A stretch of 64,000 bases of DNA from an uncultured Alphaproteobacteria bacterium. GTDB taxonomy: Bacteria; Pseudomonadota; Alphaproteobacteria; CAAHEQ01; UBA3637. The DNA lies in NCBI GenBank assembly GCA_934202735.1, contig CAKPYH010000002.1, forward strand, positions 42,945 through 106,944. The letters are read 5' to 3'. Position 1 is the first letter of the stretch, and each line of letters opens with the position of its first letter. The notes beneath the pieces are model-generated. The model ran no database searches. It saw nothing but the letters and a program-made list of their open reading frames with translations, and had not been told where the DNA came from. Positions 1-56,550 of the stretch are shown here, in pieces. The position numbers and the translations under genes were made by a program.

Positions 1-620
1 CGGCGTTTGGATTGACACATGATCGGCATGGCAAACAGGAAAAAAGATATCAATACGGTATAGTTCAATCCCATCACCCCTAACCAAGCCCCCAGGGCCG
101 TTATCATTTTAACATCGCCGGCCCCTAATTCCGGGCGTTCAAACAGGCCTAACAACAAAACCGATACCGTAGCAATCAAATAACCGAAGACGGCCCCGGT
201 TATACCGGCCATAGGTGTGGTTTCGTGGCATAAACAAGACATCATAAAGCCCGATAAAAGCAAGGGAACAGTAAAAAAATCCGGCAGTAAAAAATAACGT
301 TCATCAATAAAAATACAAAATCCGATTAAAACACAAAAGACGCACCCCCATACGGCTAATTCCCCTCCAATCAAGCGGTGTGAAAGAACAAATAAGACCG
401 CCATGGTTAAACCCCACAGAATGGAAATGAACCCCAGTTTTTTCCATTTGCTTATCAGACGGTGGCGTTGAGAGGCAAATATCACCCGCGGAAAATGCGG
501 ACGATGCCATAAACGCAGGAGAGCCAATCCCGGATCTGCCGGTAAAATCTTACCGAACCGTCCGGCCGTTATGGGTAATAACAGTCCTGTGATAAATCCG
601 ATACAGGCGAATAAAGACAT
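1..620 (-). CDS. Prepilin (leader) peptidase, A24 family; partial, its 3' end lies beyond the window start
   Basis: Minus-strand translation by hand (not in ORF track because it crosses the edge): MSLFACIGFITG...FIDERYFLLPDFFTVPLLL...ELGAGDVKMITALGAWLG. The LLPD and GxGDVK(L/M)xxAxGxWLG motifs are the two catalytic-Asp signatures of PilD/TadV-type aspartic peptidases. The N-terminal domain has no Cys. Confidence 0.6.
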   Translation of the reverse strand, partial: MSLFACIGFITGLLLPITAGRFGKILPADPGLALLRLWHRPHFPRVIFASQRHRLISKWKKLGFISILWGLTMAVLFVLSHRLIGGELAVWGCVFCVLIGFCIFIDERYFLLPDFFTVPLLLSGFMMSCLCHETTPMAGITGAVFGYLIATVSVLLLGLFERPELGAGDVKMITALGAWLGVMGLNYTVLISFFLFAMPIMCQSKR

Positions 621-5146: not shown

Positions 5147-5302
5147 TCGGTTTTTATATTTAGCCATCGGGCATACGGTCGGAATCCGCTTCATTCTTGT
5201 TTGTCATATCATCATTGGTCATTTTTCAAAAAATAAGTCTATATAATTCAAAGGAATAGGTCCGATAGACAACCCTTACGGGTATTGTGTTGATATTTAG
5301 TA

Positions 5303-5331
5303 TTGCAAACAACATTAAAGTGTGATACAAT
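5303..5331 (+). promoter_or_regulatory. Sigma70-type promoter of RHH gene (TTGCAA-17-TACAAT)
   Basis: Near-consensus -35/-10 with 17-bp spacer 28 bp upstream of an AAAGGAGG RBS; duplicated with copy B. Confidence 0.45.
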
Positions 5332-5358
5332 CGCCTTATCCACCAAAGGAGGTTTCGG

Positions 5359-5637
5359 ATGTTTTTTTGTAAAACGGTTATGGTCAATGGTCGGCGCACC
5401 AGCGTGCGTTTGCTGCGACAAACATGGGTCTATATCAACGAAATTTGTATGAACGAGAACACAACCATTCATTATCTGTGTTCCCGGTTAGATCAGGAAC
5501 GGGGACGTATGGGGTTGTCTACGGCGGTACGCATGTTTGCGCTAACGTATTATCGTGATAAGTGTCAAGCCTACAAGCATCAACTGGATTGTTTGTCTTT
5601 GCGTCAAAAAAAGCCCCATCAAGCCTCTAACGGTTAG
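5359..5637 (+). CDS. Small ribbon-helix-helix DNA-binding protein (COG4321-like), copy 1
   Basis: 92 aa; GRRTSVRLLRQTWVYINEIC...LSTAVRMFALTYYR resembles RHH-domain proteins; strong RBS and promoter. Confidence 0.55.
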   Translation: MFFCKTVMVNGRRTSVRLLRQTWVYINEICMNENTTIHYLCSRLDQERGRMGLSTAVRMFALTYYRDKCQAYKHQLDCLSLRQKKPHQASNG

Positions 5638-5683
5638 TCAGGCCAAGGCCCCGTTCTTGGCTTATAATATATTGACGCTTCTC

Positions 5684-5738
5684 CCTGGATTCCCGATTTC
5701 TTATGAATGACAAGAGAGAAAAACCGGAAATGACAGGG
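5684..5738 (+). repeat. Degenerate right-end module of the MITE-like repeat family (see 47803..47998)
   Basis: cctggattcccgatttcttatgaatgacaag ~80% similar to cctggatttccgctttcgcgtgaatgacaaa at 47960..47998. Confidence 0.4.
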
Positions 5739-16284: not shown

Positions 16285-16434
16285 GTTATGAATGTATCAT
16301 AAAAAGGTATTTTTGTCAACAAAAATAGAAAAATGTTTTGTTTTTAATGGGTTATTTTACATCTAAAAAGGGCTTGTATCTGACACGATTTTATGCTATA
16401 AAGGCGTATGTTTTACATTCGCAAAGGAGTTTTT

Positions 16435-19400
16435 ATGTTAAAACAAGCAATTTTCAAACCATCGTTTATGCCATTGTGGCTCTCACACTTTTTGTCCGTG
16501 ATGAATGATGGTTTCATCCGGATGGTCTTTTTGTATTTTGCTACCTATCAGATGACTCAGGCCGGTACCGTTTTTTTAATTCCGGCCGTGATTTCGTATG
16601 CGTTGTGCTTTTGTGTGGCCAGTTTATACGCCGGTCCTATTGCCGATAAATTTTCACGCGTGCGTTTTTTGCGCTGGATTCGGATGGCCGAGGTCGGTTT
16701 AATGTTGATGGCGTTGGGCTCTGTGTTTTGGGAATCGCGTTTTGTTTTGACCTTGATACTGGCTTTGTTGGGTTTGACAGGGGCCAGTTTACGGGTAGTC
16801 AATAATGCTTTATTGATGACAGTGGTGGGGAAAACACACCTGAACTTTGGGAATCTGTGGATGAAAACCCTGTCGGTTGTAGGGGCAGGATGCAGTACAT
16901 TGTTGCTGATGTCTGTTTTGAAGTTTGATGTAGCCGCCGGTTTGGTGTGCGGTTTGGCGGTTTTGTTCGCTTGTATCAGTTTGGGGACAACTTACCTGTT
17001 GGATATGGATGCACCGGCAGATGAAACTTGCCCGTTGACTTCACATCCGTGGGTGGCTTTTGAACCTGTGTTAGCCTCATTGAAACATCAATTTGACAAG
17101 TGGGCCTACCTGGTCGGGATTGCTTGGTTTTGGATATTGGGCAGCTTGATTTTCTTCTTTTCGGCCGAATACGGACATACTGTTTTGAATGCGCGTTGGT
17201 CCGTTGTAACCTTTTTAAGCTCGGGTATTTTTACGGCCGGATATTTGGTCGGGGCCGTCATATATGCTCGTTTGACACGTCGGGGAAATTTGTTCTCATG
17301 GACGGTTTGGACCGGGTTGAGTATCTCTGTCTTTTTGATGGATTTAGTTTTCGCCGGCGGGGCCGTCATGTCGGATCCGAATGTTAAAGGTATTACGGTC
17401 CATGATATGTTGTTCGGCGGTGTCAATTATTGGCGTGTGATCTTGGATACATTCTTTTTGGGCGGATGTACGGCTATTTATATTGTCCCTTTTTATACCA
17501 TGCTGCAAAAGACATGTGCTAATGCTTTGCTGGGTCGGACCATGGCGTTTGGAAGTGTTATCAATGCTATCGGTATTATGGCGGCCTTTTTGATCGTTTT
17601 GTGCTTCCGCTTGTTGGGGATAGATTTGCAAACGATTATCTTATTGTTTGCCATAGCAAATATTTTTGTGGCGATTTATATGGTTCGTTTGTTGCCGGTA
17701 GAAACACGGCGGCGGGTGTTCCAAATTGTCCTGAAAAAATTGTTTAAGGCCCGAATTGAAGGGTTGGAAAACCTGAAAAAAGCAGGGCCGCGTGCTTTGA
17801 TTGTCACCAATCATACGTCTTATTTAGATGTTTTGTTGATTTCGGCGTTTGTAGAACGCAAGATTGTCTTTGCGATTAATGATCAACTGATTGACAAAAG
17901 TTTTGTGAAGTTTTTGACAAACTTGGTGGATGTCCGTCCGATGGATCCGGTGAGTCCTTTTGCCGTCAAGGATATGGTGGAAGAATTGAATAAGGATCAG
18001 TTGTGTATGATCTTTACGGAAGGCATTATTGAAGGCGGTAATACGCGGATGAAAATTTACGAAGGACCGGCCATGATGGCGGCCAAAGGTGATGCGCCGA
18101 TTGTACCGATACGGATTGACGGGGCCAATCATGCGATTTTCTCCCGTGTCTTGGGGAAAAAAGCGGATTTTCGGTTGTTGCCAAAAATTACGCTAACGGT
18201 TTTGCCGCCGGTATATTTTAACGATTTTCCCGATGATATGCCGACTCGCGAAGTGCGTGAACGGTCCAGTCTTCGGCTGTATCATGTGATGTCCGATATG
18301 ACTTTTGACAGTTATGAAAAGGATAAAACCGTGTTTGAAAGTTTAACATATTCCATGGATATGGTCGGGCGTTTCAAACCGGTCTTGGAAGATACCTCTC
18401 GCAAGCCGGTCAAGTTTATCGGGGTATTCTTAAAGGCCTTTGTTTTGGGTAAATTGATTCATCGGGTGGCTCCGGAAGATAAATATGTCGGCGTGATGAT
18501 TCCTACTTCTAATGTCTGTGCCTTAACGGTGTTTGGGCTGCATGCTTATGGTAAAGTACCCGCTATGCTGAATTTTACCAGTGGCCCGCAGCAAGTTATT
18601 GCGACCTGTCAAACGGTTGGATTAAAAACGGTTATTACAGCCAAAAAAGTTGTAGCGTTGGCCAAGTTGGAAAATATGATTACAGCGTTGACGGAAGCCG
18701 GGATACGCGTGGTGTATTTGGAAGATTTGGCACCGTCTTTGACATTACGGGATAAATTGGCCGGTGTTTTGGCAGCGGTCTTCCCGCGGCGGGCGTACCG
18801 TAAAACCAGCGGCGGTCAAGTTAAACCTGATGATCCGGCGGTGATTTTATTTACATCCGGGTCTGAAGGTTTCCCTAAAGCTGTCTTTTTAACGCATCGG
18901 AATTTAATTTCCAATGCATATCAGGTCCCGTCTCGGTTTGATATTTTACCGACCGATGTATTTTTGAATGTGCTGCCCATGTTCCATTCATTCGGTTTGG
19001 GGGCCGGGACAATCTTGCCTTTGTTGATTGGTGTTAAAGCGGTTTTGTACCCGACACCGCTGCATTATCGGATTATTCCGCAACTGTGTGCATCTGCCCG
19101 GGCGACAATTTTCTTTGCCACGGATACGTTTTTGGCCGGTTATGCCAAATGTGCCAATCCGTACGATTTTAACAGTCTGCGGTTGGTGGCTGCCGGTGCC
19201 GAAAAAGTCAAGGATGATACACGGAAAATTTGGTCTGAAAAATTCGGAGTGCGTGTTTTGGAAGGATATGGGGCAACGGAATGTTCCCCTTTTATCTCCT
19301 GTAATTCATTCTTGGAACAACGGTTGGGATCGGTGGGGCGGTTTTTACCGCGCATGGAATATCGGTTAAAGCCGGTGGAAGGTATTACCGAAGGGGGTGA

Positions 19401-24415: not shown

Positions 24416-24439
24416 GGTGGAAAACGTCAATAAGTTCTG

Positions 24440-24880
24440 AACCCAGAACGAGGCGTTGACCTGACTAAACGTTAGAGGCTTTATGAGTCTTTTTTTGACG
24501 CAAAGACAGACAATCCAGTTGATGCTTGTACGCTTGACACTTATCACGATAATACGTTAACGCAAACATGCGTACCGCCGTAGACAACCCCATACGCCCC
24601 CGTTCCTGATCTAACCGGGAACACAGATAATGAATGGTTGTGTTCTCGTTCATACAAATTTCGTTGATATAGACCCATGTTTGTCGCAGCAAACGCACGC
24701 TGGTGCGCCGACCATTGACCATAACCGTTTTACAAAAAAACATCCGAAACCTCCTTTGGTGGATAAGGCGATTGTATCACATTTTAATGTTGTTTGCAAT
24801 ACTAAATATCAACACAATACCCGTAAGGGTTGTCTATCGGTCCTATTCCTTTGAATTATATAGACTTATTTTTTGAAAAA
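24440..24880. repeat. Copy B of ~440-bp inverted duplication (partner 5224..5660)
   Basis: Reverse complement near-identical to copy A including promoter, RBS and CDS. Confidence 0.8.
24465..24743 (-). CDS. Small ribbon-helix-helix DNA-binding protein, copy 2
   Basis: 92 aa, identical to copy 1 except C-terminal ...KKTHKASNV. Confidence 0.55.
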   Translation of the reverse strand: MFFCKTVMVNGRRTSVRLLRQTWVYINEICMNENTTIHYLCSRLDQERGRMGLSTAVRMFALTYYRDKCQAYKHQLDCLSLRQKKTHKASNV

Positions 24881-39295: not shown

Positions 39296-39367
39296 GAGTC
39301 TGCCGCATTCGACCACTCTGCCACCTTTCCATATACACTCTCAATCTGTTATTCGGTCTTGCCGTTG
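39296..39367. repeat. Direct repeat unit 2: pseudo-tRNA-Ser 5' half plus promoter region
   Basis: Identity begins exactly at the CTC|GAAA position of the anticodon loop; separated from unit 1 by 78-bp GC-rich spacer. Confidence 0.75.
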
Positions 39368-45430: not shown

Positions 45431-46885
45431 ATGTATACTATTCAAGGAAAAACAGGGGCTTGGGAACTGGTTATCGGATTGGAAGTCCATTGTGAGATTT
45501 TATCTCAATCCAAGGTCTTTTCAGGGGCATCGGCCAAGTTCGGTGCCGAACAAAATACACAAGTTTCCTTTATTGATGCCGGGTTTCCGGGTATGTTGCC
45601 CAAGGTAAACGCCAAGTGTATTGAACAGTGTGTCAAGACGGGTTTCGGCCTGAATGCCAAAATCAACAAATTTTCACGCTTTGATCGTAAAAATTACTTT
45701 TATGCCGATTTACCCCAGGGGTATCAGATTTCACAACTGTATTACCCGATTGTCGGTGAAGGGTTTATTGAAGTAACCACCGATGAAGGGACCCGAAAAA
45801 TCGGTGTGGAACGGTTGCATTTGGAACAAGATGCCGGCAAGTCCATTCATGATATGGTGCCGGGCAAAAGTTTGATTGACTTGAATCGCAGTGGTGTAGG
45901 CCTGATGGAAATTGTGTCCAAGCCGGATATGCATTCACCGGCGGAAGCGGGGGAATATCTGCGCAATTTGCGTGCGATTGTACGGGCTCTCGGAACGTGT
46001 GACGGCAACATGGACGAAGGCTCTATGCGGTGTGATGTGAACGTATCGGTACGTCCGGTGGGTGAAACGGGACTGCGTCCGCGGGCAGAAGTTAAAAATG
46101 TGAACTCGGTGCGTTTTGTCATGCAAGCCATTGAAATTGAAGCACAACGTCAGATTGATATTTATGAAAACGGTGGCCAATGTCGTCAGGAAACCCGTTT
46201 GTTTGATTCGGTGAACCTGGAAACACGCCCGATGCGTAGTAAAGAAAATGCAAATGATTATCGCTATTTCCCCGATCCGGACTTATTACCGGTGATTTTA
46301 ACGGACGACTACATTGAAAATATCCGCAAAAATCTGCCTGAATTACCGGACGCCAAAAAGAAACGGTATGTGGAACAACTGGGGTTGACACCCTATGACG
46401 CGTCTGTTTTGACGGCCGATGTGGAAACGGCGGCCTATTTTGAAACCGCTATTCAAGGACAAGATGCCAAAAAAGTTGCTAACTGGGTGATGGGTGATTT
46501 GTTTGCTTACCTGAACAAATCGGCCAAAACCATTACGGACAGTCCGATTAAGGCTCAGGATTTAGGGGCTTTGGTCGGATTGATTGCCGATGGGACCATT
46601 TCCGGGAAAATTGCCAAAGAAGTTTTTGAACTGATGACGCAAACGGGTAAGGCTCCCGCCGTGATTGTGGAAGAAAAAGGGCTGAAACAAACCACGGATA
46701 CCGGTGCGATTGAAGCCATTATTGCCGATGTTTTGGCGGCCAATATGGACAAAGTGGCCGAAATTAAAGCCGGTAAAGATAAACTGAAAGGCTGGTTTGT
46801 GGGGCAGATTATGAAGGCCAGTCATGGCAAAGTCAATCCGGCATTGGCCAATCAGTTGTTGGATAAAAAATTGAGTGAAGTGTGA
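45431..46885 (+). CDS. gatB: Glu/Asp-tRNA amidotransferase subunit B
   Basis: 484 aa; GatB N-terminal catalytic and C-terminal YqeY-like domain. Confidence 0.9.
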
Positions 46886-47688
46886 TGTATCAAAGCAATC
46901 ATTCGGATCGGATACGGGCATATACAACCCTTGCCGGAGTGTGTCCCCGTGCCGATTTGGTTCCGCCTAAGCGTCGGGCTGAGTTTCAACAACGTGTTCA
47001 ACGTATTTTGAATCATTCTCATACATTGCCCGACTCTTTGAAACATCGCCTGGCAATAGAAAGTTTTTCTCGTGTTTTGTTGAGCTTGCAGGGATGTGTT
47101 TCTTTGGTAGCGTCCTGTTTGGGAATACGTCTGGGGTCGGATATCGCAAATATAATGTTGCCACATGCAGCGGCATTGGGACGCAAAACGATGGTTGCTC
47201 ATTTGATCAAAGTCTGGAATGCTGATGTCAATTACCAAAACAGCAACGGTGATACGGCTCTGCATTTGGCCATTAAACGGAAACGGTTTGCGGTGGCCGA
47301 TATGCTTTTACGGTCCGGGGCTAAGTTATACCCGAATAAGGCAGGGGTAAGCCCACTGGGGCTGGCATGTATGCGTGATATGGCTTTGGCTGTTCCGGTC
47401 TTCAAAAATAACGGAGTTGATCTGAATCGACCCGAAAAAATACGCTACTGGAATCGTTTTTACTTGGGGTGGCATACCAATTATATTTATCCGATTTCGT
47501 ATGCACTGTGTAAAGATAAACCCAAGGTCCTACGGGCATTATTGAAAGCCGGTGCCAAGATAGATGTGCCTTTGGTTAGAAAGAAGACGCTGACCTGGCG
47601 TGAGGTGGTGAAGCAGCGACCTGACGCCATTGGGCCGCGATGTTTGCCCATTATGATACGTGCAATCCGGACGCATACACATGCTTAG
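46885..47688 (+). CDS. Ankyrin-repeat-containing protein, translationally coupled to gatB
   Basis: ATG overlaps gatB TGA (TGATG); NGDTALHLAIKRKRFAVADMLLRSGAKL ankyrin repeats. Confidence 0.6.
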   Translation: MYQSNHSDRIRAYTTLAGVCPRADLVPPKRRAEFQQRVQRILNHSHTLPDSLKHRLAIESFSRVLLSLQGCVSLVASCLGIRLGSDIANIMLPHAAALGRKTMVAHLIKVWNADVNYQNSNGDTALHLAIKRKRFAVADMLLRSGAKLYPNKAGVSPLGLACMRDMALAVPVFKNNGVDLNRPEKIRYWNRFYLGWHTNYIYPISYALCKDKPKVLRALLKAGAKIDVPLVRKKTLTWREVVKQRPDAIGPRCLPIMIRAIRTHTHA

Positions 47689-47802
47689 GACCTGGCGGTA
47701 TCTCATACAAAGTCGCCCGCAAATTGGATAGTTCTCGGGCGGTTTGTGTGTAGAAACTATTTTTTTTCTATATCCTGTCATTGGCGGGCATTTTTTTATA
47801 TT

Positions 47803-47900
47803 GTCATCTTCGGGCTTGACCCGGAGATCCAGGGGAGAGAAGTCAATATATTATAAGGATTTCAGTGCCCAATGGATTCCCATTTTCATGGGAATGACAG
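47803..47900. repeat. MITE/PATE-like palindromic element A (TGTCAT...ATGACA ends)
   Basis: tgtcatcttcgggcttgacccggagatccagg...ggattcccattttcatgggaatgacagg; internal hairpins. Confidence 0.55.
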
Positions 47901-47915
47901 GACAGGGGTAAAACT

Positions 47916-47998
47916 TGTCATCTTCGGGCTTGACCCGGAGATCCAGGAAACATAAGGACTTCATTTATCCTGGATTTCCGCTTTCGCGTGAATGACAA
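47916..47998. repeat. MITE/PATE-like palindromic element B, tandem to A
   Basis: Same 5' 32 bp as element A; 3' end cctggatttccgctttcgcgtgaatgacaaa. Confidence 0.55.
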
Positions 47999-48223
47999 AA
48001 TATAGATGTTTCCAACATTTTGAATTATGCGCTGCGCTTACCCGCTCACTGCGTTCTGGCCGGTTGTTTTTGATATAATATATTGAAATAAATGATTTTA
48101 TTTGTTCTTTTACTCGGTTTTCTGGTCCTTTGAAAATACCTGAATTTGGGTATTGCAAAAAACCATGGTTTATGGTACACTCCGGGCCAAAGAAGAAATA
48201 CGTTCAAGAAAGGGACAGCCAAA

Positions 48224-49708
48224 ATGAAACAACCGAAAAAAATGACTCATCTGCCGGCTGAACAAACCGAATCTGGTCGTAGTATGGTAGAAATGTTAGG
48301 GGTTTTGGCCATTATGGGCATCTTGTCCATTGGAGGGATCGCCGGCTATACATACGCCATGAACAAACTGCGGGCCAATAATACGATCACGTATGTGAAC
48401 ATGTTGGCAATTGCGGGTAGCCAACAGGCCGCTTTGGGACGGGACGAGTTGACATTGGAGGAGTTCCCCGCCAAAACCACCGATGGCTATGACGCAGATA
48501 TTTATCGCTTGACCGATGAACCACGCTATTTTGATATTGATATTGCAGGCGTTCCCCGGGCTGTGTGTACAAATATCTTGGCCTTGACGACACATTGGCG
48601 GGGGTTGGATAGTGTTTGGGTCAATGATAACCAAACGACCTGTGAACAAGATGAGAACTTGATGAGTTTTATTTTTTCGGAGACGCTGGGATCAGATGAG
48701 AACGGCGGGTCGCGGTGTACGCAAGATTCGGAATGTTCGGGATGTCAGACGTGTGTACGCGGATTTTGTACCGATACCGATGCTGCATGTTCGGGGAATA
48801 CGCCCTATTGTGTCAACGGTACCTGTCAAGGTTGTCATGCCGGTGAATTTCAAGACACCAAAGGAAAATGTTATCCTTGTAGTGGGGATACGATTATAGG
48901 ATCCGTGGATCCATCCGAATGCGATAAATGCAAAGGACAACGCTTTAGTACACTTTCTTATCAACGCTGTGTCCCATGTACTTATCCAGGTTCTTTATAT
49001 CTCAACAAAAATGATATTGACAAAGCCCGGTGTAATTCCTGTGCAAAACGGTATTGGATGCGTTATGGCAGCAGTGAGATTACATGTAATTATTGCGATG
49101 GTATGATCACCAGTGAAAATGATGAGCAAGTTTGTCAAGGTCATTGTCCGGCCGGTCAAGTGTGGAGTGGTAACAAGTGTGTGTCTTGTGATAGTACGGA
49201 TACTATTTTGTTTGGTGTTTCCCGGGAATCGTGTCGGACAATATGCGCGGGAGTTCGCTTCCCGGAAATCACCTTTGCTCAATGTACCCGATGTGATGCG
49301 CCTCTGGCACGTCAGTCCACACAAGCCGATTGTGCTGCTTGCCCCAATAACTATTGGCGCAATGATTTCTGCTATTATTGTAACGGCACTGTCATCCATG
49401 AAAATAACGCACAAATTTGTCAAGGTCATTGTCCGGCCGGTCAAGTATGGAACGGTTCAAAATGCGTTGCTTGTGATAGTAGCGATACTGTATTCTATAC
49501 GGTTTATGGACCGGATTGTGCCCGTCAGTGTAAAGGTGTCAGATTTTCACGTTCAGAGTATTCGGCATGCTTCAGATGCGATAAAGCAGGCGATCAAATC
49601 ACTAATGATAAAGAATCGTGTTTGGCGTGCGGGAACCGGACATGGAAGAACGGGACATGCAGTTTCTGTGCCGGAACCGTTAGCGCCGATGGGACAACGT
49701 GTGAATAA
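48224..49708 (+). CDS. Type IV pilin-like protein with very large cysteine-rich tandem-repeat C-terminal domain
   Basis: Leader MKQPKKMTHLPAEQTESG then RSMVEMLGVLAIMGILSIGGIAG (class III signal, Glu at +5); ~50 Cys; two ~80-aa internal repeats (CQGHCPAGQVW(S/N)G(N/S)KCV(S/A)CDS). Confidence 0.6.
   Translation: MKQPKKMTHLPAEQTESGRSMVEMLGVLAIMGILSIGGIAGYTYAMNKLRANNTITYVNMLAIAGSQQAALGRDELTLEEFPAKTTDGYDADIYRLTDEPRYFDIDIAGVPRAVCTNILALTTHWRGLDSVWVNDNQTTCEQDENLMSFIFSETLGSDENGGSRCTQDSECSGCQTCVRGFCTDTDAACSGNTPYCVNGTCQGCHAGEFQDTKGKCYPCSGDTIIGSVDPSECDKCKGQRFSTLSYQRCVPCTYPGSLYLNKNDIDKARCNSCAKRYWMRYGSSEITCNYCDGMITSENDEQVCQGHCPAGQVWSGNKCVSCDSTDTILFGVSRESCRTICAGVRFPEITFAQCTRCDAPLARQSTQADCAACPNNYWRNDFCYYCNGTVIHENNAQICQGHCPAGQVWNGSKCVACDSSDTVFYTVYGPDCARQCKGVRFSRSEYSACFRCDKAGDQITNDKESCLACGNRTWKNGTCSFCAGTVSADGTTCE
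49075..49600. repeat. Intragenic tandem DNA repeat (~2 x 290 bp, ~80% identical) within the pilin-like gene
   Basis: ttgtcaaggtcattgtccggccggtcaagt(g/a)tgga... occurs twice. Confidence 0.5.
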
Positions 49709-56488: not shown

Positions 56489-56550
56489 GACCCTTGACAC
56501 AATAATAAAAACGCGGCCCGGTGAAGGACCGCGTTCTTTGTCGTGATGGT

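Follow-up and report, generated by a model that had tools for sequence, protein, structure and literature searches.

What kind of protein begins like a type IV prepilin and continues as a long cysteine-rich array? The question is raised by an open reading frame at 48224..49708 (plus strand; 1485 nucleotides (nt), 494 amino acids (aa)) in a 64,000-nt stretch of contig CAKPYH010000002.1, from an uncultured bacterium of the Alphaproteobacteria; this whole stretch is referred to below as the window. The identical protein is deposited in public assemblies, without a name. The structural reading of this gene is well supported, with a class III prepilin signal, a pilin fold, a new disulfide-rich variable head and a very large unannotated family. 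Beyond this, we think it somewhat probable that its product is a modular type IV pilin from a lineage-specific family of type IVb-like character, processed by a prepilin peptidase and displayed on a pilus as a variable adhesin or antigen, with the adhesin function and the surface location being what we infer. The parts of the gene are as follows.

48224..49708, plus strand: whole gene, encoding a modular pilin-like protein of 494 aa with 46 Cys

48224..48277, plus strand: leader peptide, aa 1-18, ending in ESG, with a possible alternative start at Met7 (from family leaders)

48278..48433, plus strand: mature helix alpha1, aa 19-70, with invariant Arg at +1, Ser at +2 and Glu at +5 and a hydrophobic alpha1N (from the alignment, the PDB register and the model helix 20-70)

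48434..48703, plus strand: globular pilin domain, aa 71-160, four strands and a helix, with invariant Cys115 and Cys140 as a D-region-like pair (from the alignment, the model and Foldseek)

48704..48982, plus strand: proximal Cys-rich segment, aa 161-253, conserved, with 80-85% identity in the allele and paralogues

48983..49606, plus strand: hypervariable cassette, aa 254-461, with no blastn similarity to the same-locus allele of a strain that has 98.7% identical flanks

49085..49369, plus strand: internal repeat unit 1, aa 288-382, 12 Cys

49370..49654, plus strand: internal repeat unit 2, aa 383-477, 12 Cys; paralogue P0003 is one unit short

49607..49708, plus strand: conserved C-terminal tail, aa 462-494 and stop, with 97% identity in allele P0002 and paralogue P0003

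Is the prepilin signal real? The protein begins with MKQPKKMTHLPAEQTESG and continues, past the predicted cleavage point, with RSMVEMLGVLAIMGILSIGGIAGY; the leader is thus 18 aa long with Gly at -1, the mature protein starts RSMVEMLGVLAIMGILS, and Glu lies at +5, as the initial annotation had described. There are three principal lines of evidence. First, G18, R19, S20, E23, L25, L28, A29, G32, L34, C115 and C140 are invariant in 120 of 120 aligned homologues, while mean column identity outside the invariant positions is 10%; the family leaders are mostly 6-20 aa in length and all have a terminal Gly, usually as ES-G. E23 is followed by the hydrophobic segment MLGVLAIMGILSIGGIAG, which provides the roughly 20 hydrophobic residues of alpha1N that accompany Glu at +5 in type IV pilins. 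Second, a profile of the 146 N-terminal positions compared against PDB has exclusively type IV pilins as its top matches (8tob, E 0.006; TcpA, 0.012; PAK pilin, 0.044), in a register that puts R19 at +1 and E23 at +5. Third, the protein is modeled with a pilin fold, as described below. On the strength of this family-wide invariance, the in-register profile matches and the modeled fold, we conclude from alignment and prediction that the class III signal is real. Because the leader-GRS..E motif is conserved at the protein level, the true start lies upstream of the hydrophobic segment, and a start downstream of it is excluded.

The dedicated pilin models nonetheless fail here. On the 494-aa protein, PF07963 (N_methyl) reaches 11.5 bits, short of its cut-off of 21.2, and no match to TIGR02532 is obtained; a signature of the PF07963/TIGR02532 type is weakly matched in just 9 of 50 sampled family members, and NCBIfam was likewise unsuccessful on the prepilin peptidase and the short pilins described below. 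The +1 residue is an invariant Arg and not the hydrophobic residue (Phe, Met, Leu and similar) of type IV pilins. Arg at this position departs from the PROSITE-type prepilin consensus, and we know of no characterized pilin that has it. All of this could be read to mean that the prepilin likeness is fortuitous and the protein an ordinary Sec-secreted or signal-anchored Cys-rich protein, an explanation that seems to us highly improbable when set against a Gly at -1 and a Glu at +5 invariant across the aligned members of a family of thousands, against PDB top matches that are all pilins and in register, against the modeled pilin fold, and against the recurrence of the motif in short pilins and the presence of a peptidase. 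The sub-threshold scores look like a failure of the models and not like an absent signal, in which case class III signals with Arg at +1 form an entire group that standard pilin signatures overlook.

The AlphaFold2 model, built on the homologue alignment, is confident, with a predicted local distance difference test score (pLDDT) of 88.5, and supports the pilin assignment. It consists of a 51-residue helix (residues 20-70), a four-strand sheet (strands at 90-152), a low-confidence linker (157-160) and a beta-hairpin-rich stalk, such that the predicted pilin module ends at about aa 152 and a 330-aa module follows the linker. This is the layout of a modular pilin, in which a pilin module is joined through a short linker to an additional C-terminal module. 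The top Foldseek ranks are type IVb pilins, namely TcpA (8uhf; E 5.6e-3, probability 1.0), CofA (9iuf) and PilS (3fhu), with probabilities for the three of 0.94-1.0 and target-normalized TM-scores of 0.44-0.49; in fold, the modeled pilin domain thus appears to resemble TcpA and CofA most closely. The invariant Cys115 and Cys140 lie within this domain and are a predicted disulfide pair.

How unusual is such a protein? An exhaustive profile search finds 6,309 cluster representatives with E <= 1e-3, of which 5,198 reach E <= 1e-10, a word-indexed homologue search finds 576 relatives, and a scan of species-representative genomes gives at least 574 confirmed loci. The best 80 of these at least 574 loci are in about 30 assemblies, nearly all of them uncultured Alphaproteobacteria from ruminant, rabbit or human gut, and a single assembly may contain 8 copies or more. 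The members have in common an N-terminal pilin module of about 145 aa, and their C-termini diverge completely, including several kinds of Cys-rich array, lectin-like ends and one pretoxin-HINT domain; the largest paralogues reach 1,100 aa or more. Where the sources name these proteins they call them "hypothetical protein", and literature searches found no description of this pilin-like family. The gene therefore belongs, with a great many paralogues, to a family of modular pilins and is not a singular giant pilin, and because of this membership the kind of protein is known and the family is new. More than 6,000 clusters are now annotated merely as "hypothetical protein", if named at all. A 601-aa member with 44 Cys in ACGCP...VCC repeats is present in L090 (1322-3127, plus strand) at the equivalent gatB-adjacent position.

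The family also includes pilins of ordinary size. L030 has four short-pilin genes with the same N-terminal motif and 114-125 aa beyond it, L089 has four in tandem (123-149 aa), and a short-pilin query retrieves 6,874 homologues, the best 120 of which are all short forms (99-190 aa). Short and modular forms that share one N-terminus are what would be expected of major and minor pilins and modular pilins with a common assembly interface.

In one relative, P0014, the pilin module is fused to a pretoxin-HINT domain (E 2.9e-6), and a constant N-terminus with a variable C-terminus is reminiscent of polymorphic toxins. On this reading the pilin module would direct trafficking, and the variable C-terminus would be a payload that is released or is delivered to neighboring cells. 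For the protein considered here such effector or toxin delivery is very unlikely. It has no Hint, toxin or protease domain, and the gene that comes after it is queH, on the opposite strand, and not a small immunity-like gene; likewise, PT-HINT is present in just one of the 50 sampled members.

What is the module that the pilin domain carries? The stretch from aa 166 to 494 contains 43 of the 46 Cys (13.1% Cys), and the Cys richness that first drew attention to the gene is thus evident, if with a count below the approximately 50 initially given. No Pfam or NCBIfam domain and no PDB sequence or fold match was found for aa 161-494, which matches neither the profiles nor the folds of EGF, furin-like, TNFR and Giardia variant-specific surface protein (VSP) repeats. 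Negatives of the word-indexed homologue search on Cys-rich queries are unreliable, in that with aa 254-494 it returned just two proteins and missed the query's own 99%-identical cluster. The additional module therefore does not correspond to a recognized domain from outside pilus biology, as the extra modules of modular pilins do, and would be a new disulfide-rich addition to their repertoire. Tandem repeats are present within it as initially proposed, with a period of 95 aa (285 nt; aa 288-382 and 383-477) rather than about 80 and with 47% protein identity; the DNA identity of about 80% does not extend beyond a core of 132 nt at 74% or, more narrowly, 91 nt at 81%, and the 95-aa repeat is not reported by Tandem Repeats Finder.

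The initial annotation left the choice between disulfides and metal sites for these cysteines. The CxxC pairs are regularly spaced, 10-18 residues apart, and the module has a weak match to an RNF123 zinc-binding chain (E 0.029), as might be expected if the CxxC...CxxC arrays were zinc-ribbon-like sites in a metal-binding protein. We give this very little credence. The module lies beyond a class III signal and is predicted to be extracytoplasmic; the mature Cys count is even in 106 of 120 homologues, while counts that are multiples of four after setting aside the pilin pair occur in 53 of the 120, which is the chance level; and DsbA-like CPHC genes adjoin pilin genes in L089 and L090. Because of the even counts, the lack of a multiple-of-four excess and these DsbA-like neighbors, the sequences favor disulfides over zinc.

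The gene varies between strains. Allele P0002 occupies the same gatB-queH locus, with flanking genes 98.6-98.8% identical, and its identity to the gene is 96.5% in the pilin domain, 84% in aa 161-253, 36.5% in aa 254-461 and 97% in the last 33 aa; the segment aa 254-461 is a cassette that is replaced between strains of the same species. Two paralogues have a related structure. P0003 is flanked by hisS and nfeD and comes from a strain that matches the window at 97.5% identity across 5.3 kb, and P0004 precedes a response-regulator gene and sucCD; both have 95-99% nucleotide identity across the first 600-750 nt and a further 165-240 nt upstream, and in both the similarity breaks at one common point, at about 48979-48983. 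The duplicated upstream region and 5' half begin at 48059 in L086 (87.5%) and at 47985 in L091 (92.4%). P0003 lacks exactly one 95-aa unit, and repeat copy number thus varies. No silent cassettes were found in the window, and no shufflon or recombinase was found at the modular pilin gene. The mosaic is observed, and exchange of the cassette by recombination between alleles and paralogues is the mechanism that these comparisons suggest. With its constant 5' half, variable cassette and constant tail, this is a locus at which strain-level cassette exchange could be followed in metagenomes.

The region upstream of the gene contains the following features.

47985..48223, plus strand: upstream region co-duplicated with the 5' half of the gene in paralogues

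47802..47901, plus strand: palindromic element 1, resembling a miniature inverted-repeat transposable element (MITE) (TGTCAT...ATGACA), absent in strain L001

47916..47998, plus strand: MITE-like palindromic element 2; the same 32-mer is upstream of P0003 in L086

The two MITE-like repeats were correctly recognized at the outset: identical 32-mers lie at 47802 and 47916 (0 expected by chance), and each opens an imperfect palindrome of about 85-100 nt (TGTCAT...ATGACA) with a folding z of about -3.6. Their number differs by strain, with two in the window and one each in L001 and L087. Nothing near threshold was found by Rfam in the intergenic region, and no transposase or integrase was seen. 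Of the suggestion that the gene could be mobile or variable, the second part stands, as the cassette shows, and the first is not supported, the MITE-like elements being polymorphic neighbors of the gene only. The L002 contig starts about 110 nt upstream of the start codon, downstream of these elements. The MITE-like elements, of the form TGTCAT...ATCCAGG / CCTGGAT...ATGACA, include a further one at window positions 5684-5712 (minus strand), and translated read-through of similar elements seems to explain over-long leaders such as HCERPFWTRGNPSG in P0007, P0010 and P0011.

Could the protein be processed and assembled in this organism? A prepilin peptidase was initially placed at the start of the window, and it is indeed there.

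3..620, minus strand: A24 prepilin peptidase, cut by the window edge, 228 aa in full

It matches Pfam Peptidase_A24 (E 5e-15), both catalytic Asp motifs are legible (IDERYFLLPD and GAGDVKM), and a longer contig of the same species has it complete, as a 228-aa gene standing by itself amid housekeeping genes. No methyltransferase domain was detected in it, the A24 domain alone being recorded, and for this reason N-methylation of Arg19 is unlikely.

Several observations weigh against assembly into a pilus, and they are to be added to the weak signature scores and the Arg at +1 described above. First, the 64-kb window contains no assembly ATPase, platform protein or secretin, nor was a short major pilin seen in it. 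Second, within 10 kb or less of about 90 family loci there is no assembly ATPase, platform protein or secretin, with the exception of a single ATPase in L029. When E. coli GspD/E/F/G/L/O sequences served as phmmer seeds against 3,563 open reading frames (1.33 Mb of family loci), this T2SSE-family ATPase and peptidases were all that was recovered; gene neighborhoods of nine proteins have no T2SSE, T2SSF or secretin genes; and a Walker-A regular expression found none, in a scan that missed the GMGKT motif of the L029 ATPase itself. Third, this ATPase (16434-18317, plus strand; 627 aa; divergent T2SSE family, Pfam E 2.7e-28) has DotB, PilT, GspE and PilB as its closest solved relatives and, since DotB comes marginally first in score, may be part of a type IVB secretion system. 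Fourth, a survey of Rs-D84, one order of gut Alphaproteobacteria with reduced genomes, reported type IV pili in another lineage only (PMC12306168); the organism of the window may or may not be a member of that order. A motor of the right class thus exists in the lineage, with a link to pili that is not secure. The L029 ATPase has five copies of a proline-rich repeat of about 33 aa (RFAPPPVAPQVVDEPIVSETVIQPEPEFVAEDDS) at its N-terminus; its gene is a solitary one next to rimP-nusA-infB, and a family member lies 5 kb away.

These observations would fit a protein that uses its pilin-like N-terminus as an export or anchoring handle, cleaved by the A24 peptidase and held in the inner membrane or in a short periplasmic pseudopilus, with the module at the envelope and no long pilus, in a manner comparable to the class III substrate-binding proteins of archaea or to a T2SS-like pseudopilus. 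Indeed, the family genes are scattered singly amid housekeeping genes and never beside assembly genes, no machinery was found in the window, related reduced genomes are reported to be without type IV pili (PMC12306168), and the paralogues seem too numerous and too large to be tip pilins of one filament. Nonetheless, relatives have tandem arrays of ordinary-size pilins with an identical alpha1N, the residues that pack a filament (Glu at +5 and the whole of alpha1N) are invariant while the remainder diverges freely, and an ATPase of the PilT/GspE class is present in one family-bearing metagenome-assembled genome (L029). We therefore regard a mere handle, the main alternative, as unlikely, if deserving of serious consideration.

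A pilus-displayed modular pilin could act as follows. The preprotein would enter the inner membrane through its hydrophobic alpha1N helix, as is established for pilins, and the A24 peptidase of the genome would cleave after Gly18 to expose Arg19; removal of this predicted new N-terminal Arg by trypsin would leave a peptide starting SMVEMLGVLAIMGILSIGGIAGYTYAMNK. The periplasmic part would then be oxidized: the pilin domain would gain the single bond C115-C140, and the 330-aa stalk as many as 22 disulfides. The pilin module, formed by alpha1 and the four-strand sheet, would dock into a filament of short pilins that bear the same GRSMVEMLGVLAI helix, and because the additional module is bulky the protein would most likely be at the tip or sparse in the filament, by analogy with CofB/TcpB and S. 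sanguinis PilB/PilC. The Cys-rich module would point outward as the ligand-binding or antigenic part, and its cassette (aa 254-461) would be exchanged among alleles and paralogues with a near-identical 5' half and sometimes a shared 3' tail.

A broader proposal is more doubtful, and we offer it tentatively: that one invariant handle, G followed by RSMVEMLGVLAI with its unmethylated Arg at +1, may serve as a universal display scaffold for thousands of modular pilins, the Cys-rich heads being of new fold, together making up a recombining repertoire for surface variation and adhesion, a bacterial counterpart of the VSPs and the variant surface glycoproteins (VSGs). If this is true, the repertoire of modular pilins would give bacteria that depend on a host or partner the means both to adhere to their partners and to escape them. 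The hosts of the family are gut Alphaproteobacteria that are widespread in humans and livestock, uncultured and without characterized surface biology, and the family would be the leading candidate for the interface at which they meet hosts or partner cells.

The window as a whole is a housekeeping region of an anaerobic alphaproteobacterium, with PFOR, glycolysis genes, gatCAB, era, rnc, lepB and a VirD4-like coupling protein. The neighbors of the modular pilin gene are gatCAB, an ankyrin-repeat gene, queH, gtrA, a GT2 gene and recO; it is an orphan outside any pilus operon, without the operon setting of CofB and TcpB. The ankyrin-repeat gene (46882-47688, plus strand) is directly upstream, and a stretch of it at about 46958-47495 is missing from strain L087 of the same species. 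Elsewhere, a VirD4/TraG-type coupling protein of type IV secretion systems (32062-34260, minus strand; Pfam E 1e-39) lies next to a pentapeptide-repeat protein (34270-35268, minus strand), and no further type IV secretion genes were seen in the window. An inverted 459-nt duplicate (5222-5680 and 24422-24880; 95.6% identity) has a small RHH_4 (ribbon-helix-helix) gene in the corresponding segment of related contigs, and one copy sits where synteny with L086 ends (window position about 24226), at which point L086 has P0003 and the window does not. A 73-nt direct repeat (39145-39217 and 39295-39367; 98.6%) overlaps tRNA-Ser(CGA) (39090-39180, minus strand), the signature expected of an integration site. 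A gene for a 425-aa MORN-like repeat protein with YKNG..DG.WK.Y units (L001 18323-19600, minus strand) is inserted between dciA and gap in L001 and L002 and is absent from the window (compare 56489-56550). Three 418-aa open reading frames were considered as insertion-sequence copies; this was dropped for two of them, which are of the EPSP-synthase family and HisRS-like, and the third is at 37717-38973.

How does the protein compare with known systems? Modular pilins are reported to number more than 1,200 proteins in 264 architectures, and the concept was established on S. sanguinis PilB, with a vWA module, and PilC, with a lectin module (Raynaud et al. 2021, PMC8179133). The likeness to these is close, in that a small class III pilin module and a short linker precede a bulky C-terminal module, thought in PilB and PilC to be tip-displayed and adhesive (PMC8179133). 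In contrast to them, the signal here escapes IPR012902/N_methyl and has an invariant Arg at +1, the additional module is a Cys-rich array without a known domain or fold, the gene is an orphan with no pilus operon, and there are several copies per genome with strain-level replacement of the cassette.

The best structural matches for the pilin domain are in the type IVb systems, V. cholerae TcpA/TcpB and CofA/CofB of enterotoxigenic E. coli. The alpha1N is also similar, the profile alignment setting VLAIMGILSIG here against VLGIMGVVSAG in TcpA, and minor pilins of the TcpB/CofB type likewise combine extra C-terminal domains with the N-terminus of the major pilin and act at the tip. Their genes form compact operons whereas those described here are scattered, and the present family differs further in its shorter leaders, smaller pilin domain (about 140 aa), Arg at +1 and modest target TM-scores (see above).

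Two systems provide precedents for the variation. In the thin-pilus adhesin PilV of plasmid R64, C-termini are switched by a shufflon through site-specific inversion within a single locus. PilV shares with the present gene a constant pilin N-terminal part and interchangeable C-terminal segments, which in R64 set binding specificity; here, the variation is between paralogues and alleles, and no shufflon, recombinase or silent cassette was found with it. Antigenic variation of Neisseria PilE draws on promoterless silent pilS copies, whereas the donors here would be full-length expressed paralogues, there being no silent copy in the window; in both, a conserved 5' pilin region and a conserved 3' end surround a hypervariable region, in a mosaic compatible with gene conversion. 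No G4 or Sma/Cla-type element was seen at the present gene, though none was looked for. Finally, the Cys-rich module recalls Cys-rich variable surface proteins and repeats of eukaryotes (Giardia VSP CxxC proteins and EGF, furin-like and TNFR repeats): it abounds in Cys and in CxxC motifs, its units are modular beta-hairpins, and its role is probably extracellular and variable.

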